Below, piece by piece: positions 8,120-55,154 of a stretch of 64,000 bases of DNA; position 1 is the stretch's first letter, and every line of letters starts with the position of its first letter. The notes beneath the pieces were generated by a model. That model had not been told where the DNA came from. It worked only from the letters and a program-made list of their open reading frames with translations, and did not search any database. Source of the stretch: Escherichia phage JLBYU50; the sequence record OK272470.1; one strand, written 5' to 3'. Both the position numbers and the translations under genes were made by a program.

Positions 8120-8123
8120 TAAA

Positions 8124-8151
8124 AAAGGAGCCTAATGGCTCCTTTTCTTTT
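8124..8151. terminator. Bidirectional terminator at convergence of + late genes and - strand block
   Basis: AGGAGCC-TAAT-GGCTCCT flanked by A-run upstream and TTTTCTTTT downstream. Confidence 0.6.
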
Positions 8152-26552: not shown

Positions 26553-27143
26553 TTAACGACGACGTGAGCTACTAAAACTACGTTTCGACGAAGAATAACT
26601 TTTCGAAGACTTACTATAAGAGCTAATAGGACTTGAGTAAGACTTACGAGCAGAGTAATCACTATTCACTTTTGTTGTTGATGGGCGTGAATACGTTTGT
26701 ACACTTTGCTGCTTAATTGTGTTTTGTTTAGTGGTTGTATATGTATTTCCTTGTTTATCATAAAAACTATGCTTTTGTGTTGTATATGCTTTGCTATTAG
26801 TTGTAGGAGCAGCGTTGTTATTGATAATTGTTGTATTGCTACCGCCATCTCTATAACCACCACCGCCACTATTACCACTCAACATATGACCAAGAAGCAT
26901 ACCTGTAGCAAACTCACCTACACCAGAAGAACCACTGCCGCCTCCTTGCACAACAACTGTTGAAGGTTGTGCAGGTGCTGCTTGAACAACTTGAGGTGCA
27001 GGTTGATTTACATATTGTTCATCTACCATCTGATTTGGTGTTTGTTGGTAACGTTGATTTTGTACATTTTCAGAATCATCACAACCTACCAGCAATACAC
27101 TACCTAAAACAACTGCAACAATAAAAGATTTAATGTTTTTCAT
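26553..27143 (-). CDS. Lipoprotein with Gly-rich and Ser/Tyr-rich low-complexity regions
   Basis: Start at MKNIKSF after RBS gagggt. Signal peptide with lipobox (LLVGC). Gly-zipper-like segment and Ser-rich basic C-terminus. Confidence 0.5.
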   Translation of the reverse strand: MKNIKSFIVAVVLGSVLLVGCDDSENVQNQRYQQTPNQMVDEQYVNQPAPQVVQAAPAQPSTVVVQGGGSGSSGVGEFATGMLLGHMLSGNSGGGGYRDGGSNTTIINNNAAPTTNSKAYTTQKHSFYDKQGNTYTTTKQNTIKQQSVQTYSRPSTTKVNSDYSARKSYSSPISSYSKSSKSYSSSKRSFSSSRRR

Positions 27144-27375: not shown

Positions 27376-28353
27376 TTAAGCAACAGCCTGGTCTTCTTTT
27401 TCAGGGAAGATTAAACTTGCAATAACACCCAACCCAAGAGTACCTAACACAATATACATACTGATCGTCGGATCAATGTGTGCTGGTAGGAAACTCACTT
27501 TTGCGTGCAGAGTTTCTGCAAACGGGTGATACATCAGTTTTACACCCACAAATACCAGGACTACGATAACTGCTTTCTCCAGATGAACCAAATACTTCAG
27601 TGCAACACTAAGAACAAAGAACAGAGCGCGTAAACCTAAGATTGCACAGAGCATCGAAGAGAACACCAGCAGAGGTTCTTGTGTCACTGCAATTACTGCT
27701 GGAACAGAGTCTACTGCAAAGATTACGTCAACCATTTCCATTACAAACACACAAACCAGAGCCGGAGTTGCTACACGAACACCATTTTTGATTGTGAAGA
27801 ACTTCTCACCATCCATCTGATCAGATACAGGGAACAGCTTACGAACAATGCGAGTAGCCCAGTGTTTAGAGTAATCAACTTCTGCATCATTATCTCCAGC
27901 GAATACCATTTTAGCCGCACAGAAAAGGATGACAGCACCGAAGAAGATATTAACATACCAGCCCAAACTCAACAAGTAAGTACCTACTGCTACAAACACA
28001 CCTCGGAAGACAATCGCACCTGCAATACCCCAAAGTAGAATCTTGTGTTGCAAGTGTGTGCTTTTAATACCAAAACTTGCGAATACTGCCACAAATACTA
28101 CTAAGTTATCTACAGAAAGAGATTTCTCCAACACATACCCACTCAAGAACAAACTCGCAAAATCAGCACCGTGTTGGAAGTATACAAAACCATAGTAGGC
28201 TAATGATACCCCAATCCAGAAAATTGACCAACCAACTGCCGATTTAAATGAAATCTCTTTGTTTTCTCTGTGTCCAAAGAAATCAATACAAATCGACAAC
28301 ACTAAAATACCCACTAAAACAACCACATCAATAATTGGGAAACCCAGTTGCAT
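27376..28353 (-). CDS. terC: TerC-family integral membrane protein
   Basis: 325 aa polytopic membrane protein. Signature motif EKSLSVDN and several further TM helices. Terminator-like hairpin upstream at 28372-28390. Confidence 0.8.
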   Translation of the reverse strand: MQLGFPIIDVVVLVGILVLSICIDFFGHRENKEISFKSAVGWSIFWIGVSLAYYGFVYFQHGADFASLFLSGYVLEKSLSVDNLVVFVAVFASFGIKSTHLQHKILLWGIAGAIVFRGVFVAVGTYLLSLGWYVNIFFGAVILFCAAKMVFAGDNDAEVDYSKHWATRIVRKLFPVSDQMDGEKFFTIKNGVRVATPALVCVFVMEMVDVIFAVDSVPAVIAVTQEPLLVFSSMLCAILGLRALFFVLSVALKYLVHLEKAVIVVLVFVGVKLMYHPFAETLHAKVSFLPAHIDPTISMYIVLGTLGLGVIASLIFPEKEDQAVA

Positions 28354-28430
28354 TCTTTTCTCCTCTTTAATGCGGAGGACAATCCTCCGCTCTATGTCTT
28401 ATACTATAAACTGTTTTTAAAGAAAGTCAA

Positions 28431-45352: not shown

Positions 45353-45378
45353 AAAACCCGCTTCGGCGGGTTTTCTTG
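45353..45378 (+). terminator. Rho-independent terminator after AAA ATPase paralog B
   Basis: AACCCGC-TTCG-GCGGGTT followed by TTCTTG. Confidence 0.55.
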
Positions 45379-46404: not shown

Positions 46405-46956
46405 ATGCGGATTACTGATAAGTATGTGTTCTTCTTTTCAGCAAAAGATGAATTTAGCAACTGGTATCTATCATCTTTTATTGAACCTTTAGCTCCCAAG
46501 TATAATAATTCTATTACAAGTTCTGTTGAATTTACTTGTGTGGAACAATATATGATGTGGAGAAAAGCATGTTTATTTTATGATTACAACATTGCATCTT
46601 CTATTTTAACCGGAGATCTAAGATATACAGGAGAAAAAGAACAAGCATATTATAAGCGACTAGGCAGATTAGTTAAAGATTATGATGAAGATACCTGGAC
46701 TTCTTTACGGGAGAAGATTGTCAAACGTGGTTTGTATCTTAAATACACACAAAATGAAGATCTCAAAAATAAACTTATAGCCTACGCAGATAAGGAGTTC
46801 GTAGAGGCAAGCCCTTATGATTCTATTTATGGTATCAAAATGGGGATGTGGGATCGGGACGTGGAAAATAAGGATTGTTGGAAAGGACAAAATCTTTTAG
46901 GAAAATGGCATACAGACCTTGCTGTTTATCTAAAAGCACAATCTGATATTTCCTGA
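46405..46956 (+). CDS. NADAR-family protein (YbiA-like)
   Basis: 183 aa. Blocks YVFFFSAKDEFSNWY, CVEQYMMWRKACLF, EASPYDSIYGI match NADAR/DUF1768 (F..FSNFY ... EQ.YM..KA ... EASP.D.IWGIG). Confidence 0.7.
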   Translation: MRITDKYVFFFSAKDEFSNWYLSSFIEPLAPKYNNSITSSVEFTCVEQYMMWRKACLFYDYNIASSILTGDLRYTGEKEQAYYKRLGRLVKDYDEDTWTSLREKIVKRGLYLKYTQNEDLKNKLIAYADKEFVEASPYDSIYGIKMGMWDRDVENKDCWKGQNLLGKWHTDLAVYLKAQSDIS

Positions 46957-47174
46957 TATTTTGAAAATTTTTATTTTTATAAAAAGGGGTGTGGGTTTCA
47001 TGTACGGAAATTCACCCTCTGCACAGTATATCCAGAGTAAGTAGTATTCTATACCCTGTTAATAAAGTATTTAATTTGTTTGTTGGACTATGGTATCTGA
47101 TCTTTAAAAGGCATACTATCTCTTAACTACTACTTATAACAGAACAGTAAAATCATTTTTATAAAAAGTACAAA

Positions 47175-47372
47175 ATTATTTAAAGTTTTTACAGATTTTT
47201 GGGTACAAATTTTGAAAATGAAAAGTTCAAGTTTGGTCAAAATTATTTAAAGTTTTTGTACGTATTTCTATTCAGATTTTGAAAATGAAAACTTCAATTT
47301 TTTAAAAATTCCCCAGTTTATTTAAAGTTTTTTTGCCTTTTTCCGTAGAAAAATCAAAAATGAAAAGTTCAA
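47175..47372. repeat. Three tandem ~65-bp direct repeats (iteron-like)
   Basis: Unit = ATTTAAAGTTTTT + ~20 nt + TTTGAAAATGAAAAGTTCAA, at 47175-47230, 47241-47297 and 47318-47372. Confidence 0.6.
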
Positions 47373-47395
47373 TTTCGTGTTTTTATAGGTGTGTT

Positions 47396-47455
47396 AATGA
47401 GAATCATTTTCGTTTGTAAATGAGAATCATTAGCAAATGAGAATTTTCTCATTTA
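47396..47455. promoter_or_regulatory. Three tandem Fur-box-like sites (AATGAGAATCATT)
   Basis: AATGAGAATCATT at 47396-47408 and 47419-47431, and palindromic AAATGAGAATTTTCTCATTT at 47436-47455. One mismatch from the GATAATCATT core of the enterobacterial Fur box. Confidence 0.4.
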
Positions 47456-47715
47456 GAGAATAACGCGCAGGGGTGGTGTTTGTCTCGCGCTCCCGTGTCC
47501 CCTCGCCATACAATAAGAATAGCATAACCAACAACAAAAGCAAGCGATTATTTTTATCTTTACATTTCTTTACAAATTTATTTTGGACGAGCTACCGGCG
47601 ATCAACCTTCCAACCAGTGCCCCCTGGTATGTTAGCCCCGCCTTTACGCCGTGGGGGTGGCGTTTCCTCTTCTGTATGTAAAACAGTATAAGCCCGATCC
47701 CTGGGCTTGTCAATA

Positions 47716-47982
47716 TTATTTTTTGTTTTCTTGCCAGGATAGGACACCTAACCAAAAATACATGTCGCCCCGCGCCCCTGGCGGGATCTTGCTTTCCCCG
47801 CCGCCACTGCAAGCCCATAGATAACCATTTACGAACGTATCAAAGTGATCTATCTCTTCCACCTTATGATCGCCCAGGTTGAGAACGGTTTCAACCTTTA
47901 AGCCCGTTGCGCTTGCTACCTGGTGCACCGTGCCGCCTTGCCAGCCCAATGAGTGCATGAGATGTAAAGGAGTATTTGTCAT
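47716..47982 (-). CDS. Hypothetical small protein in GC-rich segment (possible HTH regulator)
   Basis: 88 aa ORF, only candidate on the - strand in the early region. Segment GWQGGTVHQVASATGLKVETV is HTH-like. Could instead be non-coding. Confidence 0.25.
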   Translation of the reverse strand: MTNTPLHLMHSLGWQGGTVHQVASATGLKVETVLNLGDHKVEEIDHFDTFVNGYLWACSGGGESKIPPGARGDMYFWLGVLSWQENKK

Positions 47983-48093
47983 GGTATCGCCCTTTCTTTG
48001 ATGTGCGCCCTGGTTGGCGCGGTAGAAAGATAATAGCCGTTTCCTTTATAGATAGCAAGCAAAAAAGAAATGAAAAAAAGATTAAAAAAAATG

Positions 48094-48152
48094 GTTGACG
48101 TTCCTCACCTGGTAGCGTAGTATTCATCTTGTCGAGGGGGCAATAGTGCCGC
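48094..48152 (+). promoter_or_regulatory. Early promoter cassette 1 (TTGACG-17-TAGTAT) with imperfect GC hairpin
   Basis: -35 at 48094-48099, -10 at 48117-48122, imperfect palindrome GGGGCAATAGTGCCGC at about 48136-48152, then RBS and ATG 48177. Confidence 0.5.
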
Positions 48153-48176
48153 TCATAACAGAAGAGAGAAATAATC

Positions 48177-48449
48177 ATGGCATCATATAGCGCATCAATG
48201 ATCGTAACGGGTATCACTGGTAAACCTATGCGCGGTGGCGGATCTTTCGCTAACATCAACATTGACGGGCGTTTATCCCTGGACGCAGCGATCACAGTGG
48301 CACGGGAAACATTTAAAAAAGAATGTAATTTCAATAAACAAGATTATCTCGGTTTCGCTATTGAAAAAACCGCGCGCTTTGTGGATTATAAAAGCCCGAA
48401 AATGATCGACACTACACTAAAAGCGCAAGATGTAGCGTTTTTGCTTTAA
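48177..48449 (+). CDS. Hypothetical early protein
   Basis: 90 aa, preceded by cassette 1 and RBS agagag. Confidence 0.45.
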   Translation: MASYSASMIVTGITGKPMRGGGSFANINIDGRLSLDAAITVARETFKKECNFNKQDYLGFAIEKTARFVDYKSPKMIDTTLKAQDVAFLL

Positions 48450-48452
48450 GGT

Positions 48453-48513
48453 TTGACACTGAAAAATAATTGGGTAATATATACGACATAAGGCGGGGAA
48501 ATGGTTTCCCGCC
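48453..48513 (+). promoter_or_regulatory. Early promoter cassette 2 with palindrome GGCGGGGAAATGGTTTCCCGCC
   Basis: TTGACA 48453-48458, -10 TAATAT 48475-48480, palindrome 48492-48513, then RBS aaagggtaa and ATG 48536. Confidence 0.6.
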
Positions 48514-48535
48514 AAATCAAAGAAAGGGTAATGCA

Positions 48536-48898
48536 ATGAGCAAGCAAATCAATACTATCATGTTTAATCTGGTATCTTTCCGCGATGACGTGAAAAACCT
48601 TTCGCGTGATGCAGTGGATGCACGGATCGAAAGCTATCGCACACAGATCGCAACGTTACCGCTGAAACGTGATCAACATGCCGCTAATATGATGCTGGAT
48701 GCTATGATTAAAAAGATGATTCAGTGTGATATTACCCTGGCTTATGAATATGCTGGCGATCTCTTTGTAACATATAGCAAGCCCGTTCCAGGTATGAGCA
48801 CCACGGAAGAATTGCATGCCTTAAATCTGCGACAAGATGCATGGGATAACATGCGCCGTGTTATGGTATGGGTAGAAAGCGGTAAAATTTACGAATAA
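48536..48898 (+). CDS. Hypothetical early protein
   Basis: Start at MSKQINTIMF, chosen downstream of the promoter and palindrome. Confidence 0.45.
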   Translation: MSKQINTIMFNLVSFRDDVKNLSRDAVDARIESYRTQIATLPLKRDQHAANMMLDAMIKKMIQCDITLAYEYAGDLFVTYSKPVPGMSTTEELHALNLRQDAWDNMRRVMVWVESGKIYE

Positions 48899-48904
48899 AA
48901 ACGG

Positions 48905-48957
48905 TTGACATTGCACTAAAACCTGATAAGCTATCTTAAAGCGGGAACTATTCCCGC
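48905..48957 (+). promoter_or_regulatory. Early promoter cassette 3 with palindrome GCGGGAACTATTCCCGC
   Basis: TTGACA 48905-48910, -10 AAGCTA 48928-48933, palindrome 48941-48957. Confidence 0.55.
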
Positions 48958-48976
48958 TTACATAGGATAAAACTTT

Positions 48977-49123
48977 ATGAAACAATATGTAATGAGTATT
49001 CATACCAAAAACGGCGCTACTGTTACGACTCCGGCACGGTTTGCACTTGTAAACCGTTGCAAGAGACTAAAACGAGAGCTAAAAAATAACCGTGCAACGG
49101 GCTTTAAACGCTGGGGAGGATAA
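48977..49123 (+). CDS. Hypothetical small basic protein (48 aa)
   Basis: ATG 19 nt after the cassette 3 palindrome. Arg/Lys-rich. Not in the ORF track (under 60 aa). Confidence 0.35.
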   Translation: MKQYVMSIHTKNGATVTTPARFALVNRCKRLKRELKNNRATGFKRWGG

Positions 49124-49125
49124 TC

Positions 49126-49386
49126 TTGTTTTTTCTAAAAGTTTTTGATAATGTGATCGCTTTTGAACATGCTACAACGTTCGACCTGGCGAGATACGCT
49201 ATCAGGTTTAAAGATAATGTTTATCCCCGTGCTGGCGGCGGTTACACTATTTTTAATCATCGCAACGCGCAACTGACTGATGTAACTAATCCAGATCCTG
49301 GAGTGTATCGCATAGGCTGGCTACCGTCAAAAGACGCTGCAAGCATGTTTAAGGTGTGTAAACTACTAACAGAAGAGGCGAACTAG
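49126..49386 (+). CDS. Hypothetical early protein (TTG start)
   Basis: TTG start 5 nt after RBS GGAGGA. 86 aa. Confidence 0.35.
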   Translation: MFFLKVFDNVIAFEHATTFDLARYAIRFKDNVYPRAGGGYTIFNHRNAQLTDVTNPDPGVYRIGWLPSKDAASMFKVCKLLTEEAN

Positions 49387-49387
49387 C

Positions 49388-49942
49388 ATGGGGCGTGAAT
49401 ATGTGATCCAGTCCTGGGTAAAGCATGATGCTAATGATCCGCGCATAATACCAGATGACATGATCGATCACATGGTAGGGTATAGCGGGGAGCAGATAGG
49501 AAATCGAGCGGCAAAGAGCAACGGCAACACCAGGACGCGATCCGTTCGTCCTGGATGGCTGGCGAATGGTAACGCTGACATTGCAAGCGCCGCAGATCCA
49601 AGCGATGACGCTAAAAATAATCCCTTGTACAGCATTGATCCGGCTTTTAAGGTGTTGGAAGAGTATCCCGCTAAATTAGCCGCACTAGATAAGGCATACG
49701 AAGAAAAGCGCATGGCCTGGACTGTATACAACACCGCTAAAATGGTGCTAGATGCAAAACTAATTAAAGCCCAGGAGAAGATCAATAAACTTGTTACCAT
49801 AGCGCAAGAGGAAGACCAGGGCGACCAGGAGGAAGAGGAAGAAATCATGCCTACCCTGGAAGAGGAAGAGATCCAGCCATACATGCCGACGGAAGAGGAA
49901 AAAAGACAAGCCTTAAAAAATTATGAAAATTGCATTGTGTAA
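49388..49942 (+). CDS. Hypothetical protein with highly acidic C-terminal region
   Basis: 184 aa. C-terminal EEDQGDQEEEEEIMPTLEEEEIQPYMPTEEEK. Confidence 0.45.
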   Translation: MGREYVIQSWVKHDANDPRIIPDDMIDHMVGYSGEQIGNRAAKSNGNTRTRSVRPGWLANGNADIASAADPSDDAKNNPLYSIDPAFKVLEEYPAKLAALDKAYEEKRMAWTVYNTAKMVLDAKLIKAQEKINKLVTIAQEEDQGDQEEEEEIMPTLEEEEIQPYMPTEEEKRQALKNYENCIV

Positions 49943-49944
49943 GG

Positions 49945-50050
49945 GTTGACATATGCAAACAAGCCCCGTAATATGTACCACATAGAGCGGGGCAACTTCT
50001 CAAAGGTGAAATAAAAAATCAGTTGACACCTGAAATCAGTAAGCTATAAT
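49945..50050 (+). promoter_or_regulatory. Tandem early promoters 4a/4b
   Basis: TTGACA 49945-49950 with TAATAT 49969-49974; TTGACA 50023-50028 with TATAAT 50045-50050. GCCCCG/CGGGGC inverted repeat flanks the first -10. Confidence 0.5.
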
Positions 50051-50087
50051 GCTTATATAGATTGAAACATTACTAAGGAATAAAAGC

Positions 50088-50267
50088 ATGGCTATTATTG
50101 CGAAGACTGAGATCGTAGGTTTAAATTCTATCCTCCTGGCATATGAGGAAGCTATAGAAATGTATGTGGTTTCCTATGGTGATTATATCCGTGAATATAA
50201 TTCTATTGATCTAGCTTTTGAATGCTATATTCGCCAGGTAAATAAAGCATACGATGATTATCGTTAA
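50088..50267 (+). CDS. Hypothetical small early protein (59 aa)
   Basis: ATG after RBS aaggaataaaagc. Not in the ORF track (under 60 aa). Confidence 0.4.
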   Translation: MAIIAKTEIVGLNSILLAYEEAIEMYVVSYGDYIREYNSIDLAFECYIRQVNKAYDDYR

Positions 50268-50286
50268 AAGTTTTAGTCTTGTGCTA

Positions 50287-50315
50287 TTGACAACGAACGA
50301 TAGTACAAGCATAAT
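50287..50315 (+). promoter_or_regulatory. Early promoter 5 (TTGACA-17-CATAAT)
   Basis: TTGACA 50287-50292, -10 50310-50315; no palindrome. Confidence 0.45.
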
Positions 50316-50362
50316 AACTTTTATCGGGAACACTCCTAACTAATCAAAAGAGATTAAAGATT

Positions 50363-50728
50363 ATGGCTAAAAATATTAATGTTTCTGCTTATGCTACCCT
50401 GGCTAACGTTGCTAAAATTGAACTGTCCAGCATTGAAGCGGTACATATTAGCGCCCGTCGCTGGTTTCAAAAGTCTTATGGTAATACTTATTTCTCTTTG
50501 ATGGTTGACGTTGAGATCGGCGGTAAACTGATTGAAGTCGTTAACGTTCCGTTTCAATATGGTTATGGTGATCATTTCGATACCGTTGCCCTGGAAGAGT
50601 TTAGCAAGGTTATCAACCTGGAAGGTAAAGAGTTTTCAAATTATGCTTATCTTTCCCGTTTTTGCCGTGACAATGGGATCGCTGTATACAGTCATGCAAG
50701 CGATGTTAAACGTAAAAAAGATTTATAA
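50363..50728 (+). CDS. Hypothetical early protein
   Basis: 121 aa after RBS aaagagattaaag. Confidence 0.45.
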   Translation: MAKNINVSAYATLANVAKIELSSIEAVHISARRWFQKSYGNTYFSLMVDVEIGGKLIEVVNVPFQYGYGDHFDTVALEEFSKVINLEGKEFSNYAYLSRFCRDNGIAVYSHASDVKRKKDL

Positions 50729-50734
50729 AAAGCA

Positions 50735-50796
50735 TTGACAGCACGAATAAAAAGCGTAAAATGTTTCATATCAGGACGGGGGAATGGTTCCCCCGC
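50735..50796 (+). promoter_or_regulatory. Early promoter cassette 6 with palindrome CGGGGGAATGGTTCCCCCG
   Basis: TTGACA 50735-50740, -10 TAAAAT 50757-50762, palindrome about 50777-50796. Confidence 0.55.
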
Positions 50797-50816
50797 CTAT
50801 AACTAGGTATAATAAA

Positions 50817-51047
50817 ATGGCTAATATGTATATGACCGAAGTTAAAACCGTAAAAGATACTACTACCAATAAAACTACTTACTTACAGCGGATCTGCGGT
50901 GTATGGCAACGTATTAGTAAAGCAAAGTATTATAAATTAACATCATATGCTAATCGTTCGGATTCATTCAGTACTGAAATAAAAGGTAATAAAGTACACC
51001 AATACGGCACTTATTATTATTATAGCCTAGACGCGATTGCAATCTAA
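50817..51047 (+). CDS. Hypothetical early protein
   Basis: Start at MANMYMTE downstream of the palindrome. Tyr-rich C-terminus. Confidence 0.4.
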   Translation: MANMYMTEVKTVKDTTTNKTTYLQRICGVWQRISKAKYYKLTSYANRSDSFSTEIKGNKVHQYGTYYYYSLDAIAI

Positions 51048-51066
51048 GCATATTTTTAAAAAGTAC

Positions 51067-51125
51067 TTGCAAACTAGGTTTAAAGGCGTATAATGTTTTG
51101 CATAGAGAGCGGGAATAGTTCCCGC
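51067..51125 (+). promoter_or_regulatory. Early promoter cassette 7 with palindrome GCGGGAATAGTTCCCGC
   Basis: TTGCAA 51067-51072, TATAAT 51089-51094, palindrome 51109-51125. Confidence 0.6.
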
Positions 51126-51149
51126 CTCACTGAAAAAGAGATTAACATC

Positions 51150-51389
51150 ATGGCTAAATCTAAAATGTACAACGGTCACAAAAACAAAACTCATTGGAAT
51201 GTAAGCCTTTGGATTAATAACGATGAATCGTTATACTTATACGCTGTAGGTTTAATAAATGAGTGTGGCAATAAAGATAAAGCGGCGGATCTAATGTGCT
51301 ACAGATTAAAACAGGATGGGATCACTCATACACCTGATGGTTTCAAGTATAGTAAAACTGCAATCCGTGCCGCTATGGTTGGAATGTAA
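51150..51389 (+). CDS. Hypothetical early protein
   Basis: Start at MAKSKMYNGHK downstream of the palindrome. Confidence 0.45.
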   Translation: MAKSKMYNGHKNKTHWNVSLWINNDESLYLYAVGLINECGNKDKAADLMCYRLKQDGITHTPDGFKYSKTAIRAAMVGM

Positions 51390-51398
51390 TAAAAACAG

Positions 51399-51458
51399 TT
51401 GACAACGTTTTTTAATCTGATAAGATGTATCACATAGGGCGGGAAATGGTTTCCCGCC
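51399..51458 (+). promoter_or_regulatory. Early promoter cassette 8 with palindrome GGCGGGAAATGGTTTCCCGCC
   Basis: TTGACA 51399-51404, TAAGAT 51421-51426, perfect 9-3-9 palindrome 51438-51458. Confidence 0.6.
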
Positions 51459-51480
51459 AAATCAAAGAAAGGTTAACATT

Positions 51481-51708
51481 ATGGCTATCGTTATTGTTCG
51501 CGTATCCGGCACGGTTGGGATCTCCCAGGTAGTAGCAGTTATCACCGAGAAGAAAGGGGATGATCTTCACTCCTCCTTGAATAGCTGGGCGGTCGCTAAC
51601 TTTGGGCAATGGTCGAGCGTTGAGTACATCGAATCCTACCAGGTGCCAACGATTAGCCTAACCGATCTAAATGTTGATCGCTTGTTGTGCCTGGATCAAT
51701 TAAACTAA
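51481..51708 (+). CDS. Hypothetical early protein
   Basis: 75 aa after RBS aaagaaaggt. Confidence 0.45.
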   Translation: MAIVIVRVSGTVGISQVVAVITEKKGDDLHSSLNSWAVANFGQWSSVEYIESYQVPTISLTDLNVDRLLCLDQLN

Positions 51709-51726
51709 AAATAATATTGACAAGAT

Positions 51727-51783
51727 AACTAAAATCAGTAAAATGTAATGCATAGGGCGGCACTATTGCCGCCCCCTAGTGAG
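51727..51783 (+). promoter_or_regulatory. Early promoter cassette 9 with palindrome GGCGGCACTATTGCCGCC
   Basis: TTGACA 51727-51732, TAAAAT 51749-51754, palindrome 51766-51783. Confidence 0.6.
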
Positions 51784-51796
51784 AGAGATTATCAAA

Positions 51797-52012
51797 ATGG
51801 CTAATATCCGCACACTGTTAAAAAATGCAAGTCAAGTTTTATTTTCAGATGACGAGTATTTCAACAAAGACATTACAGGCGTGAAAAATTTAAAAGACGT
51901 GAAGGATGTTATCGGTATCCGTGGATCTTTACGTAAAGGTGACATATACGGTAACAAGGTGCAATATAAATTGTCAAAAGATTATGATTTTACTTTGACA
52001 ATTATTTCATAA
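51797..52012 (+). CDS. Hypothetical early protein
   Basis: Start at MANIRTLLKN after RBS gagagag. Confidence 0.45.
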   Translation: MANIRTLLKNASQVLFSDDEYFNKDITGVKNLKDVKDVIGIRGSLRKGDIYGNKVQYKLSKDYDFTLTIIS

Positions 52013-52018
52013 AACCGC

Positions 52019-52079
52019 TTGCAATACTGCAAAAATAAAGTAAACTGTATTCATTAAGGCGGTGGAATAGCCCACCGCC
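52019..52079 (+). promoter_or_regulatory. Early promoter cassette 10 with palindrome GGCGGTGGAATAGCCCACCGCC
   Basis: TTGCAA 52019-52024, TAAACT 52041-52046, palindrome 52058-52079. Confidence 0.55.
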
Positions 52080-52102
52080 TAACAAAGAGAAGAGGAAACA
52101 TC

Positions 52103-52273
52103 ATGATCACTTTCGCCACCCGTGAAGCCGCTCGCAACGTTGCACGTAAAGTTAACGCCGCCAACCTGGGCGCTACGCTTAAAGCCCCGGTGAAAGATGA
52201 ATCAGGAAAATGGATCTTTCCTGGTCTGCGTCACGCTGATAAGCTGGGAACATTAACGTTAAAAAACAAATAA
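52103..52273 (+). CDS. Hypothetical small early protein (56 aa)
   Basis: ATG after RBS agaggaaaca. Not in the ORF track (under 60 aa). Confidence 0.4.
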   Translation: MITFATREAARNVARKVNAANLGATLKAPVKDESGKWIFPGLRHADKLGTLTLKNK

Positions 52274-52280
52274 TATCCGT

Positions 52281-52339
52281 TTGACAGTAGCATCATTTAT
52301 AAGTAAAGTAACAACAACGGCGGGAAATGGTTTCCCGCC
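52281..52339 (+). promoter_or_regulatory. Early promoter cassette 11 with palindrome GGCGGGAAATGGTTTCCCGCC
   Basis: TTGACA 52281-52286, TAAAGT 52304-52309, palindrome 52319-52339 (identical to cassettes 2 and 8). Confidence 0.6.
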
Positions 52340-52359
52340 ATCAATAAAGAGATAAGATT

Positions 52360-52719
52360 ATGAAATCAGTAAAAGCAATTAAAACTTACATTGTGTCGGC
52401 TATTTCTTTTGATGGTACTACAACCGAAAAAGAAAAGATCACCGAACTGATGCGCCGTTTTAACTCTGAATACTGGTATCCCGATAATCAAAAACGTTAC
52501 AATTATAACGTGATCAAGGCAATAGCCTCATGGTTACAAGGTTTACCGTCAGAAGTCAATATTGCTTTTGATTATAACGAGATCGATCACTTGTTAATTG
52601 AATGGAAGTACATAAAAGAAACAAGCAAAGAAACAACCGTTACCCGTGAGCGGGAAAATTATTGGTTATATATTGCAAGCATGATCGTAACCCTGGCAAA
52701 ACAGCATAACGTGGCGTAA
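52360..52719 (+). CDS. Hypothetical early protein
   Basis: 119 aa after RBS aaagagataag. Confidence 0.45.
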   Translation: MKSVKAIKTYIVSAISFDGTTTEKEKITELMRRFNSEYWYPDNQKRYNYNVIKAIASWLQGLPSEVNIAFDYNEIDHLLIEWKYIKETSKETTVTRERENYWLYIASMIVTLAKQHNVA

Positions 52720-52734
52720 TTAAGAGGAAAAAAC

Positions 52735-52872
52735 ATGAACGCATCACAGCAGATCGAAAAATTCAACCGCAACAAAGCGCGTAAAAATTGGAATGAAGAG
52801 ATCACCAAGAAAGGCGATAAGCGGAACAAAACAAAAAGAGATCGCAGCACAAAAAGACACTGGAACGAATAA
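52735..52872 (+). CDS. Hypothetical small highly basic protein (45 aa)
   Basis: ATG after RBS aagaggaaaaaac. Lys/Arg-rich. Followed by terminator 52877-52900. Confidence 0.3.
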   Translation: MNASQQIEKFNRNKARKNWNEEITKKGDKRNKTKRDRSTKRHWNE

Positions 52873-52876
52873 CAAA

Positions 52877-52900
52877 AAGGGCGCAATAAGCGCCCTTTTA
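52877..52900 (+). terminator. Rho-independent terminator-like hairpin
   Basis: AAGGGCGC-AATAA-GCGCCCTT followed by TTTA. Confidence 0.5.
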
Positions 52901-52990
52901 GCTTATATAGAGGCTTGTTACCCATAGGCAATGGTAACGCCAGGGCAAGCCTATAAATCAACGTTAGACAGCTTTACAGGAGCTTTAAAA

Positions 52991-53173
52991 ATGAAATTAG
53001 ACGAAATAAGCAAGGCACTAGCCCAGGGGCAAAGGTTATGCGCCCGATATCGTGATCAATATGGCTTCATAACTAGCGGCGTGATCCTGGGGATTGAAGG
53101 TAATAAAATTTTTATTGACACGTTGAAAAACGTTGTATATAGTGACAATATAATCTCAATAAAACATATATGA
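52991..53173 (+). CDS. Hypothetical small protein
   Basis: Start at MKLDEISKAL after RBS acaggag. Confidence 0.35.
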   Translation: MKLDEISKALAQGQRLCARYRDQYGFITSGVILGIEGNKIFIDTLKNVVYSDNIISIKHI

Positions 53174-53181
53174 GGCAAGAA

Positions 53182-53583
53182 ATGAAAAAATTATTGATCG
53201 CTGGTTTAATCTCTTTTGGCATGGTTGGAACATCTAGCGCGGCGATATCCTCCACAGTAGCAGAATTAAGCGCCGTTGATGCAATGGAAAACGTCATGAT
53301 CATTAATAACGCGATCCCCGATGAAATCATGGAGGATTCACACATGATCGCTTATGGTGCTGTTACACAATTAACGGCAAAAATAGATAAATCTATTGTT
53401 AATGGCTTAAATGAAGATGTACCATGTGAAATTATTACCAGTGTGCTAACGACTCAAAATTTTACGCCGTGGTTAAAAAGTATTCAAAAGGTACACAGCA
53501 CCGCCGCAGATCGTAGCAATGAAAAACTAGTGTCAGCACTTGCAACGTATACCCTAGCAAAATGCACCGAAATAAAAGATTGA
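53182..53583 (+). CDS. Secreted hypothetical protein
   Basis: Start at MKKLLIAGLISFGMVGTSSAA (signal peptide). Confidence 0.45.
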   Translation: MKKLLIAGLISFGMVGTSSAAISSTVAELSAVDAMENVMIINNAIPDEIMEDSHMIAYGAVTQLTAKIDKSIVNGLNEDVPCEIITSVLTTQNFTPWLKSIQKVHSTAADRSNEKLVSALATYTLAKCTEIKD

Positions 53584-53607
53584 CAATATAGAAAGCACGT
53601 TATAAGA
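53580..53607 (+). promoter_or_regulatory. Promoter 12 (TTGACA-16-TATAAG)
   Basis: TTGACA 53580-53585 overlapping the upstream stop, -10 at 53602-53607. Confidence 0.4.
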
Positions 53608-53630
53608 TACACACAACAAAGGAGAACTAC

Positions 53631-53933
53631 ATGAACGGCATAGCTAAAACGTTTTTTCTTTTTTCTGGTGTAAATGATCCATCAATAAAAGTCGATAGTG
53701 TAAAAGAAAACAATACTATCACCGCTAAATTGTTTCAAGATGAAACAAATAACGTGCTAATCATTAATCTTAAAGAAATAACGAAAGGTTATTATACTAT
53801 TGCTTACCATGCGATCTATCATGCTGGTACTAGCGAGGAAGTGCAAACAAGCAACAACGAAAGCGCGGCGCTACCTGGTGATCTGGTGTTGGGCGTTATC
53901 AGTTTAATTGTCAATGATTTTTTTAAGGAGTAA
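53631..53933 (+). CDS. Hypothetical protein
   Basis: 100 aa after RBS aaaggagaac. Confidence 0.4.
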   Translation: MNGIAKTFFLFSGVNDPSIKVDSVKENNTITAKLFQDETNNVLIINLKEITKGYYTIAYHAIYHAGTSEEVQTSNNESAALPGDLVLGVISLIVNDFFKE

Positions 53934-54116
53934 AACCATGCCCTATTTACATTTATTTTTCGGTATCTTATTGACAGGATCTTTTTTCTTCTGTATGCTT
54001 GTTTCTATTGTAAACCACGTTTTAAGACATTAAGGAAACAGCATGAAAATTATTCCCGTACAGTATAGCGTAATAAATCCAGCATATGAGGAAGGAAGGA
54101 AAACAAGCATGGCTTT

Positions 54117-54461
54117 ATGTTGTATTACTACTATAGCCATGTTATTATACATTGTGTTTTAATAGGTTTTATAGTTGTACGCTTTACAGGCTTTACAATT
54201 TTTTTGTTATGCTTTAAAATATATCTTGAAAACGGCAAAGGCCGCAAACAAAAGGGTAAAACTTATGCGCTGAATCATGCGTTTATCGGCAAGGTTGAAT
54301 ATAGAGAAATGATCGACGAGGAAACAGGGCAAGATTTTAGCGATTATGTTTATATTCGTTCAGAAACATTAGCCGAACGTTTGATCGAGAAAATGAAAGC
54401 AAAAAATAAAATTAATTTAGCTCATTGGATTGATATAACAAACGATTCTGCTTATCAGTAA
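54117..54461 (+). CDS. Hypothetical protein with N-terminal hydrophobic segment (start uncertain)
   Basis: 114 aa ORF ending just before terminator 54478-54504. Overlaps an alternative-frame 39-aa ORF (54043-54162) that has a better RBS. Confidence 0.35.
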   Translation: MLYYYYSHVIIHCVLIGFIVVRFTGFTIFLLCFKIYLENGKGRKQKGKTYALNHAFIGKVEYREMIDEETGQDFSDYVYIRSETLAERLIEKMKAKNKINLAHWIDITNDSAYQ

Positions 54462-54477
54462 ATAACATTTCATACCA

Positions 54478-54504
54478 GGGCGCACAAAGCGCCCTTTCTT
54501 TTTA
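54478..54504 (+). terminator. Rho-independent terminator
   Basis: AGGGCGC-ACAAA-GCGCCCT followed by TTCTTTTT. Confidence 0.6.
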
Positions 54505-54707
54505 CCTAAATAAAGATGATAGCTTTTACCTATCAAAAACGTTCACCGAAAAAAGTGAATAGATCGCGGTATCGAGCTAATCAAGGAGCAGATGAACAAC
54601 CATACCATGAAGATCATAAGGCGCTTACAGCGTGTTTTAGACCGCTTATTTTTAATTTCTTCATGCAACTATCTGGCAAAAACAGCCTTTTTCTCATCTT
54701 TCCTCTT

Positions 54708-54780
54708 AAATGATAATCATTCTTATTTATAGCTGATTATTTATGCAATAAACTGCATAATGCAATAATGATAATCATTC
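54708..54780. promoter_or_regulatory. Two Fur-box-like sites
   Basis: AAATGATAATCATTC at 54708-54722 and AATAATGATAATCATTC at 54764-54780. Each contains the 13-nt core AATGATAATCATT of the GATAATGATAATCATTATC consensus. Confidence 0.45.
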
Positions 54781-55154
54781 TTAACTTATGACCATCTAAC
54801 CTATAAAATAATAAGTTATCTAACTAAATTAAAGCTAACTATTTCACCTTTATTTATAACTTACTGTTACTATCTCATTGATAACCTTATATTAAACAAC
54901 AATAACTAATATAAATCATTATTAAGCTAACTATAATCTATCTAACCTTTAAAACTATAACTATAATCTATCTAATTGTTGCACAAAGTAACTATTAAAT
55001 TGTTAGTAACATTACTAAATAATTAATATCCTATTTATTTATGATCTAATCTTTACCTTCCTATTTATCACCTAACTAATCATTTCATACAATAATTATA
55101 ACAAGAAATATAATTCGCAAGCGTATCATTAGCAGCCTATGCCGGACACATAGG

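Follow-up and report, generated by a model that had tools for sequence, protein, structure and literature searches.

Why does nearly every small gene in one part of a coliphage genome have a promoter of its own, in most cases followed at once by a GC-rich palindrome? We addressed this question in a 64,000-nucleotide stretch of Escherichia phage JLBYU50 (sequence record OK272470.1), hereafter the window, where such genes form a tandem array of cassettes over about 5.5 kb. The array is a real, non-random feature of the promoter-early stem-loop (PeSL) type, found here in a different phage subfamily and with the hairpin shifted into the predicted transcript. PeSLs are known from the T4-like phages RB49/phi1, T4/PST and KVP40/nt-1 (Arbiol et al. 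2010, PMC2839356; Comeau et al. 2014, PMC4122927). Our favoured explanation, held with moderate confidence, is that a phi92/phAPEC8-like coliphage has its main early ‘hyperplastic’ region here, made of repeated, self-contained PeSL-type expression cassettes.

Between 48095 and 53608 we located 14 sigma70-type promoters, all on the plus strand. Scored as matches out of 12 to TTGACA-N16-18-TATAAT, 11 of them reach at least 10, where 300 dinucleotide shuffles gave 1.3±1.1 and never more than 5; at this threshold the minus strand of the array has none, and the window elsewhere has ~1.6 per 5.7 kb. The near-consensus -35 and -10 elements, 16–18 nt apart, follow an upstream stop codon that lies 3–19 nt 5′ of the -35 within an A-rich tract, and the -10 is followed by a conserved stretch (GTATCACATAG; general form GT(A/T)T(C/T)AC(A/G)TAG). 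Each full unit therefore reads stop codon and A-tract, -35, -10, conserved stretch, a hairpin of 17–26 nt, an A-rich leader of 17–23 nt with a Shine–Dalgarno (SD) sequence, and ATG. The intergenic spaces consist of the cassette and no other sequence. The stop codon in its A-rich tract and the promoter spacing are both as in PeSLs.

Hairpins follow these promoters far more often than chance predicts. Eight are stable (Table 1), with folding energies of -15 to -19 kcal/mol and z-scores of -2.7 to -5 against shuffled controls, and all eight begin 6–14 nt downstream of the -10. Seven of the 14 40-mers taken after a -10 fold at -14 kcal/mol or below, as do 0.84% of background 40-mers (P ~1e-11). 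Position is equally constrained: in 44 unique hairpins below strong promoters the stem starts 10–12 nt after the -10 in 28 and 8–15 nt in 39, those outside the wider range mostly not being cassettes, and 52 of 58 unique cassettes have their hairpin end 17–23 nt before the ATG. Between hairpin and ATG the leader is 54% A and contains the SD, so that a stable stem-loop is followed by SD and start codon, again as in a PeSL.

These results uphold much of the initial annotation and amend the rest. Its count of at least 12 tandem sigma70-type cassettes is borne out, as are its placement of the palindromes a constant short distance past the predicted start, and thus in the predicted 5′ leader RNA, and the expectation that they would fold better than shuffled controls. 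Of the nine palindromes it counted, the ninth (48134–48154) is imperfect (z -1.1) and marks a deletion scar; relatives have a perfect hairpin there. The copies at 51438 and 52319 are identical, as claimed; the one at 48492, said to match them, has an extra G (GGCGGGGAAA...) and so does not. GCGGGAA-CTA-TTCCCGC and GCGGGAA-TAG-TTCCCGC, read as a sequence change, are one palindrome inverted. One gene per cassette describes some units, with the promoter at 48905 driving three coupled open reading frames (ORFs), that at 52281 two and that at 49946 none. Two -35 elements had been misplaced and lie at 48905 (cassette 3) and 52019 (cassette 11). The higher GC content ascribed to the whole segment is confined to 48–50 kb (43.6% against a background of ~37%) and is not seen at 50–54 kb, and the element itself extends beyond 48094–53607, to a minus-strand cassette of the same type at 28430 and a cassette or scar at 54192–54267. 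The likeness to PeSLs, the cassettes as boundaries of gene gain, loss and exchange, and the hairpin flips described below were not part of that annotation.

To place the array among its relatives, we compared 48000–53700 with sequenced phages and found 95–97% identity to ~40 coliphage genomes of 145–150 kb from the subfamily Stephanstirmvirinae, which include Justusliebigvirus (phi92, Paula, alia); Phapecoctavirus is more distant. The window genes correspond to gp226–gp240 in phi92 numbering, every one annotated hypothetical. They are mutually unrelated and of unknown function: ten small array proteins fell into ten different PHROGs, each without an assigned function, and DUF7249 was the sole Pfam match. 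Four further records, MG065639, MG065645, MG065656 and MG065689 (‘Campylobacter phage’ A150, A145, C3 and A110a), are UNVERIFIED, unannotated GenBank entries; they are 95.5% identical to the coliphage-type region and classified as Justusliebigvirus, and their host attribution looks doubtful.

The same cassette layout occurs in Phapecoctavirus, in Vequintavirus (cassette hairpins are present in NHEP1) and in the jumbo phages 121Q and RaK2, the last two being putative identifications. These came from a scan of IMG/VR with the promoter and conserved-stretch pattern, hairpin left out, which returned 65 loci, mostly chance matches; only those on three phi92-like contigs and on the putative 121Q (348,532 bp) and RaK2 (345,809 bp) contigs were informative. 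Both putative jumbo-phage contigs have arrays of perfect TTGACA-16-TATAAT promoters with the same conserved stretch and a hairpin 10–14 nt after the -10, the putative RaK2 contig having ~7 such promoters in 11 kb. RaK2 stems (GGGATACA/TGTATCCC, GGGAATGAA/TTCATTCCC and GGAGATTCCA/TGGAATCTCC) are unrelated to those of the window. The RaK2 genome paper does not mention promoters, and in the searched papers on phi92-, rV5- and RaK2-like phages we found no description of these cassettes.

Are the palindromes conserved as sequence or as structure? MAFFT alignments of the cassettes (A2–A4) were rejected, their 3′ arms being out of register and carrying no structure, so we used a covariance model instead, built from ten cassettes as a single-register seed and scanned over 263 kb. 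It gave 65 strong matches, all but two on the coding strand, with sense scores ~20 bits above antisense; the two antisense matches are the flipped hairpin at 48939 and its A150 orthologue. In the model alignment of 47 distinct cassettes, 95.5% of cells are paired and both sides have changed at eight of nine pairs. The covariation score is 0.52, compared with 0.17±0.02 for column shuffles (0 of 500 reach 0.52) and at most 0.09 for slid partners. Independently of this alignment, orthologous genes have differing self-complementary stems between conserved flanks. Gene 48177, for example, has one of three stems depending on the phage (GGGCGGCA-ATAG-TGCCGCTC, GGGCGGCGGA-ATGG-TCCACCGCTC or GGGCGGGAA-GTGG-TTTCCCGCTC), and one pair of hairpin 48492 runs through A-U in Paula, G.U in the window and G-C in A150. 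The compensatory changes that the initial annotation noted are borne out, and the view that the palindromes are kept as structure rather than as sequence is supported. What selection maintains is the structure of the stem; the arms and loop can change in sequence and the hairpin even in orientation.

This pattern bears directly on a second reading in the initial annotation, the palindrome as an operator at which a dimeric repressor would block the early promoters. Dyad symmetry, the overlap with +4 to +27 and the recurrence of GCGGGAA arms in several copies would all suit an operator. Yet arms of at least five different sequences coexist in one genome, the palindromes vary in length between 17 and 24 nt and hence have no fixed half-site spacing, the same gene has different palindromes in different phages, the RaK2 arms are unrelated, and compensatory changes keep pairing rather than sequence. 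An operator is unlikely on these grounds, and we give it a very small chance.

Orientation of the hairpins is informative in its own right. Among genomes ~95% identical we found three flips: hairpins 48939 and 51755 are exact reverse complements of their orthologues, and hairpin 52057 is flipped in contig L041. Since hairpins flip without loss, the loop sequence is not required. Across genera, loops nevertheless stand almost all in one orientation (UGG, AUGG, UAG, AUAG), and the keeping of this orientation despite frequent flips suggests strand-specific selection on the loops. A second possible sign of selection on the RNA strand, an excess of G.U over A.C, is suggestive only: the model alignment gives 19 against 8 cells, five of the A.C cells really being a bulge, and symmetric scoring gives 5 against 6 with outer G.U pairs missed and with all but one of the six C.A/A.C counts drawn from a few related Phapecoctavirus hairpins.

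A shared loop might point to a recognition hairpin, bound by a phage or host RNA-binding protein or cut by a nuclease that acts on all early mRNAs, as in a shut-off of the T4 RegA/RegB kind. The element is common to many early leaders, it keeps a fixed distance to the ribosome site, and a G-rich 5′ arm with (A)UGG or (A)UAG loops recurs. Against such recognition, loops and arms vary and can be inverted without loss, RaK2 stems are unrelated and no candidate protein was identified; a comparison of 47000–55000 with the covariance models of Rfam 15 gave no family match, only two sub-threshold chance hits. We regard this alternative as quite improbable.

Do the hairpins end transcripts? They share a GC-rich stem of 7–10 bp and a short loop with rho-independent terminators, and some are annotated as terminators in GenBank records, on one strand or the other. 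They differ in lacking a U-tract and in following a promoter instead of closing a unit. In 59 unique cassettes the 8 nt 3′ of the hairpin are 61% A and 12% T, and in none do they contain four or more T. A role as canonical intrinsic terminator is excluded, because there is no U-tract and because an efficient terminator at this place would abort its own transcript. The minus-strand terminators annotated in phage Paula were rejected, as no minus-strand genes enter the array and their tails are only weakly T-rich. The genome's true terminators form a separate class with A-run and T-run flanks and GNRA or UUCG loops, and recognition of the cassettes would correct the annotations that label them terminators on either strand. 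Canonical bidirectional terminators (A-run, GC stem, loop of 4–5 nt, T-run) lie at 52875–52899, 54477–54495, 45353–45375 and 8123–8148. Outside its array, A150 has two strong promoters, at 26899 and 128117, with other hairpins 11–15 nt on (AAAGCCCC-AAACA-GGGGCTTT with a T-run, and TCTACCCC-TTCAAT-GGGGTAGA).

A partial role towards upstream transcripts is a serious rival, if one that we consider rather unlikely. As proposed for PeSLs, the hairpin would be an attenuator, terminator or 3′-end barrier: read-through would be stopped or trimmed, leaving each gene to be expressed chiefly from its own promoter, and after processing the hairpin would protect the upstream mRNA from exonucleases at its 3′ end. 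No separate terminators lie between the 12 tandem units, the sole canonical one being at 52875, and hairpins are missing from the promoters past it (53115 and 53580) and from the array's first promoter in Paula, where an extra promoter and small ORF upstream of the first hairpin make the test not clean. Annotators of phage Schickermooser labelled some of the hairpins as ARNold terminators. In RB49/phi1 a PeSL stem-loop lowered lacZ expression like rrnB T1 (PMC2839356), and RB49 hairpins lie upstream of the start and so are present in read-through RNA only. The A-rich 3′ flank and the absent U-tract speak against this role, as does the position of the hairpin below its own predicted start; moreover, a terminator would not need the fixed spacing to -10 and ATG.

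Cassettes also mark where related genomes part. We mapped 27 distinct similarity breakpoints in nine relative sequences from at least seven phages, and 19 fall within cassettes, which span 20% of the sequence (P ~2e-8). The window lacks ~250 bp found in Paula, L040 and Phapecoctavirus, a segment that in Paula has a second promoter as well as a small membrane ORF. This deletion has its junction within the 5′ arm of hairpin 48134, which explains the weak palindrome there. Gene 50817–51047 and one cassette (indel 50793–51051) are missing from Paula and L035, whose single cassette at this locus is a chimera of the window's two flanking cassettes, and 50095–50351 is missing from L036, in which the gene that begins at 48536 keeps its start under a different promoter and hairpin. 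A150 has an extra segment of 4.1 kb with six more cassettes, joined at the 14-nt leader motif GGGTAAAACTTATG (54254–54267). Half cassettes remain at 49946 and 50325 and a degraded copy at 48134. Indels and replacements bounded by the motif, with half-motifs left behind, are likewise a property of PeSLs.

A near-identical cassette of ~85 nt stands before unrelated genes, so the cassettes would act as homology patches, and their role in recombination is well supported by these genome comparisons. Recombination at cassettes, partly inside the palindrome, would delete, insert and swap gene-plus-cassette units between related phages, probably by a homologous or microhomology mechanism. ORF 54117–54461 is a fusion left by a deletion relative to A150: its C-terminal ~67 residues match the end of a 127-residue A150 gene product, and cassette and non-coding DNA supply the N-terminal ~47.

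Given such exchange, the palindrome might have no regulatory role at all and be recombinogenic or selfish DNA that rides with the promoter module, mattering only as an exchange hotspot and kept perfect by intrastrand template switching or gene conversion. This would account for the three exact inversions among ~95% identical genomes, the deletion junction within a hairpin arm, hairpins that are dispensable for some orthologues and equal folding energies on the two strands, and in RB49 a crossover was mapped to the hairpin loop (PMC2839356). It fits less well that position relative to -10 and ATG is kept over four phage groups with unrelated stems, that loop orientation is strongly biased despite frequent flips and that stems remain at least 7 bp long and GC-rich through sequence turnover. 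We consider it improbable.

How, then, might a cassette work? An A-rich, UP-like tract that overlaps the upstream stop codon precedes each promoter, and host RNA polymerase is predicted to start ~7–8 nt after the -10. The hairpin, being downstream of that start, would lie in its own promoter's 5′ leader, at about +4 to +27 of the mRNA, and also behind the upstream gene in read-through RNA. There it may act as an RNA element that stabilises or insulates the short leader and hinders nuclease entry at RNA ends. The ribosome site would be kept independent of context, so that any small gene placed behind the cassette could be expressed and the whole would be a portable unit. Modular early cassettes of the PeSL type, with a hairpin constrained in structure only and probably serving as stabiliser or insulator, are the account we find somewhat more plausible than not.

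Several observations weigh against this account. Five of the 14 promoters have no hairpin or only a remnant, and the orthologues of one gene differ between phages in whether a hairpin precedes them, so the hairpin is dispensable. Sense and antisense folding energies are alike, and this test gives no strand signal. The covariation comes from an alignment fitted to the model and from related paralogues that may exchange by gene conversion, and the G.U/A.C asymmetry is weak when counted as events, with one widespread stem family having a C.A mismatch. The searched literature held no start-site or transcriptome data for this subfamily, which leaves the start as predicted only. A start at the A of CATAG would leave 3–5 unpaired nt 5′ of the hairpin, and RppH and RNase E need at least 2 unpaired 5′ nt and prefer at least 3 (PMC8833179); 3–5 nt would suffice for both, which makes simple 5′-end shielding doubtful. 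Finally, RB49 hairpins lie mostly in the promoter, upstream of the start, and hence a function common to both systems cannot be a 5′-leader function.

The likeness to PeSLs is nonetheless extensive. Both systems have an AT-rich tract with an upstream stop, a sigma70 early promoter close to consensus, a GC stem-loop, SD and ATG within ~85–100 bp; both cluster in a variable region among small genes without known function, leave degraded ‘half’ copies near indels, and have gene-plus-cassette indels between close relatives with crossovers inside the motif, hairpin included. When we inspected the RB49 hyperplastic region directly, we found the same units of stop and A-tract, sigma70 promoter, hairpin, conserved leader, SD and ATG. 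The host phage differs, belonging to Stephanstirmvirinae (95% identity to Justusliebigvirus) rather than to the T4-like phages, and PeSLs outside T4-like phages were not described in the literature we searched. Hairpin position differs as well: in RB49 it occupies the spacer between -35 and -10 (TTGACA-GGGGATCGGTGATCCCC-TATAAT) or lies across the -10, usually upstream of the start, and is downstream in ORF207 only, whereas window hairpins stand uniformly 6–14 nt below the -10, in the predicted transcript, a layout that matches only the rare ‘downstream of -10’ subclass of PMC2839356. PeSLs of T4-like phages are described as terminating transcription at the stem-loop and as forming mini-circles by PeSL–PeSL recombination; the window cassettes have no U-rich 3′ flank.

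Two further systems offer partial parallels. Like the 5′-terminal stabilising stem-loops of E. coli mRNAs of the ompA/papA type (PMC3997798), the cassettes would place a stable hairpin near the mRNA 5′ end, followed by an unstructured leader and ribosome site. They would differ in the 3–5 predicted unpaired 5′ nt, against fewer than ~2 at the extreme 5′ end. Integron gene cassettes have attC hairpins, an integrase and defined att sites. By analogy only, they share with the array small promoter-proximal gene units that are bounded by imperfect palindromes and gained and lost there. Here there is no integrase or defined att site, each unit has its own promoter, and exchange appears to proceed by homologous or microhomology recombination. 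As for the ompA/papA type, Emory, Bouvet and Belasco are said to have found in 1992 that protection needs the hairpin essentially at the 5′ end.

Most of the unknown, fast-evolving genes of large lytic phages lie in the early regions, and many are likely to act in host takeover or anti-defence. The presence of the PeSL design in phi92-, rV5- and RaK2/121Q-like phages as well suggests a general way to express and exchange small genes, and the position of the hairpin inside the predicted transcript raises a testable question about its role. The cassettes could also serve phage engineering as compact, strong and naturally insulated expression units. A bolder possibility, which we put forward tentatively and think less probable than its alternatives combined, is that promoter, hairpin and leader form a horizontally shared, integrase-free ‘plug-and-play’ cassette system in which the palindrome has both RNA and DNA jobs. 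Such a system would be in use by unrelated large enterobacterial myoviruses (Stephanstirmvirinae, Vequintavirinae, 121Q/RaK2-like jumbo phages and Krischvirus). At the RNA level the palindrome would stabilise or insulate the leader; at the DNA level it would be recombinogenic, with flip-flop inversion and junctions in its arms, and would drive turnover of early host-takeover or anti-defence genes.

Table 1 Cassettes, hairpins and terminator of the array, with cassettes of the same type elsewhere in the window (window coordinates).
Feature	Position	Strand	Description
Cassette 1	48095..48179	+	-35 TTGACG 48095-48100, -10 TAGTAT 48118-48123, degenerate hairpin 48134-48154, ATG 48177; first plus-strand promoter past the divergent junction
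Cassette 2	48453..48538	+	-35 48453-48458, -10 TAATAT 48475-48480, hairpin, ATG 48536
Hairpin	48492..48513	+	GGCGGGGAA-ATGG-TTTCCCGCC, 9 bp including one G.U, -15.6 kcal/mol
Cassette 3	48905..48979	+	-35 48905-48910, extended -10 TGaTAAGCT 48924-48932, hairpin, ATG 48977; coupled ORFs at 48977, 49126, 49388
Hairpin	48939..48959	+	AAGCGGGAA-CTA-TTCCCGCTT; exact inversion of the orthologous hairpin of Paula and L040 (loop TAG)
Half cassette 4	49946..49996	+	-35 49946, -10 TAATAT 49969-49974, conserved stretch GTACCACATAG, left arm GAGCGGGGCAAC only (49985-49996), no gene; cassette 5 directly after
Cassette 5	50023..50090	+	Perfect TTGACA-16-TATAAT, no hairpin, ATG 50088; Phapecoctavirus orthologues have a hairpin
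Cassette 6	50287..50365	+	TTGACA-17-CATAAT, decayed hairpin CGGGAACACTCC 50325-50336 (relatives: GGGAA-TAC-TTCCC), ATG 50363
Cassette 7	50735..50819	+	TTGACA-16-TAAAAT, hairpin, ATG 50817
Hairpin	50774..50797	+	GGA-CGGGGGAA-TGG-TTCCCCCG-CC, -18.3 kcal/mol
Cassette 8	51067..51152	+	TTGCAA-16-TATAAT, hairpin, ATG 51150
Hairpin	51105..51128	+	GAG-A-GCGGGAA-TAG-TTCCCGC-CTC, -15.9 kcal/mol
Cassette 9	51399..51483	+	TTGACA-16-TAAGAT (TG-extended), hairpin, ATG 51481
Hairpin	51438..51458	+	GGCGGGAAA-TGG-TTTCCCGCC, -15.4 kcal/mol
Cassette 10	51717..51799	+	TTGACA-16-TAAAAT, hairpin, ATG 51797
Hairpin	51755..51774	+	GGGCGGCA-CTAT-TGCCGCCC; exact reverse complement of its orthologue (loop ATAG) in every relative examined
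Cassette 11	52019..52105	+	TTGCAA 52019-52024, -10 TAAACT 52041-52046 (weaker, 8/12), hairpin, ATG 52103
Hairpin	52057..52080	+	AGGCGGTGG-AATAGC-CCACCGCCT, -18.7 kcal/mol; inverted in contig L041; Phapecoctavirus has C.A in place of the T-A pair
Cassette 12	52281..52362	+	TTGACA-17-TAAAGT, hairpin, ATG 52360; drives 52360-52719 and 52735-52872
Hairpin	52319..52339	+	GGCGGGAAA-TGG-TTTCCCGCC, identical to 51438-51458
Canonical bidirectional intrinsic terminator	52875..52899	.	AAAAGGGCGC-AATAA-GCGCCCTTTT, A-run and T-run flanks; closes the block
Cassette 13	53115..53184	+	TTGACA-17-TATAGT within the end of ORF 52931-53173, no hairpin, ATG 53182
Cassette 14	53580..53633	+	TTGACA-17-TAAGAT, no hairpin, ATG 53631
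Cassette 15 / deletion scar	54192..54267	+	TTTACA-17-TAAAAT, small hairpin CGGCAAAGGCCG 54233-54244, leader GGGTAAAACTTATG 54254-54267
Same-type cassette	28351..28430	-	-35 TTGACT 28430-28425, -10 TATAGT 28408-28403, conserved stretch ATAAGACATAGA, hairpin GCGGAGGA-TTG-TCCTCCGC 28390-28372, ATG 28353

Beyond the cassettes themselves, ORF 49388–49942 contains a 27-nt tandem duplication (GGAAGAGGAAGA..., 49831–49884) that encodes an acidic, Glu-rich repeat. Upstream of the array, ~1 kb of AT-rich sequence with few ORFs (46900–47980) separates divergent gene blocks and may be an origin or regulatory region. Between these blocks lie three tandem direct repeats of 67–75 nt (47155–47375), and at 47389–47443 there are three short iteron-like repeats, (A)ATGAGAATCATT, with the palindrome ATGAGAAAATTCTCAT among them. 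On the minus strand, 47713–47590 holds a promoter, TTGACA-AGCCCAGGGATCGGGCT-TATACT, whose 17-nt spacer is itself a hairpin, the layout of RB49-type PeSLs. A GC-rich structured stretch comes next, with no obvious SD or ATG, and possibly represents a non-coding RNA. The -35/UP part of this promoter repeats, in inverted orientation (28 nt, 89%), the promoter at 51697–51724.

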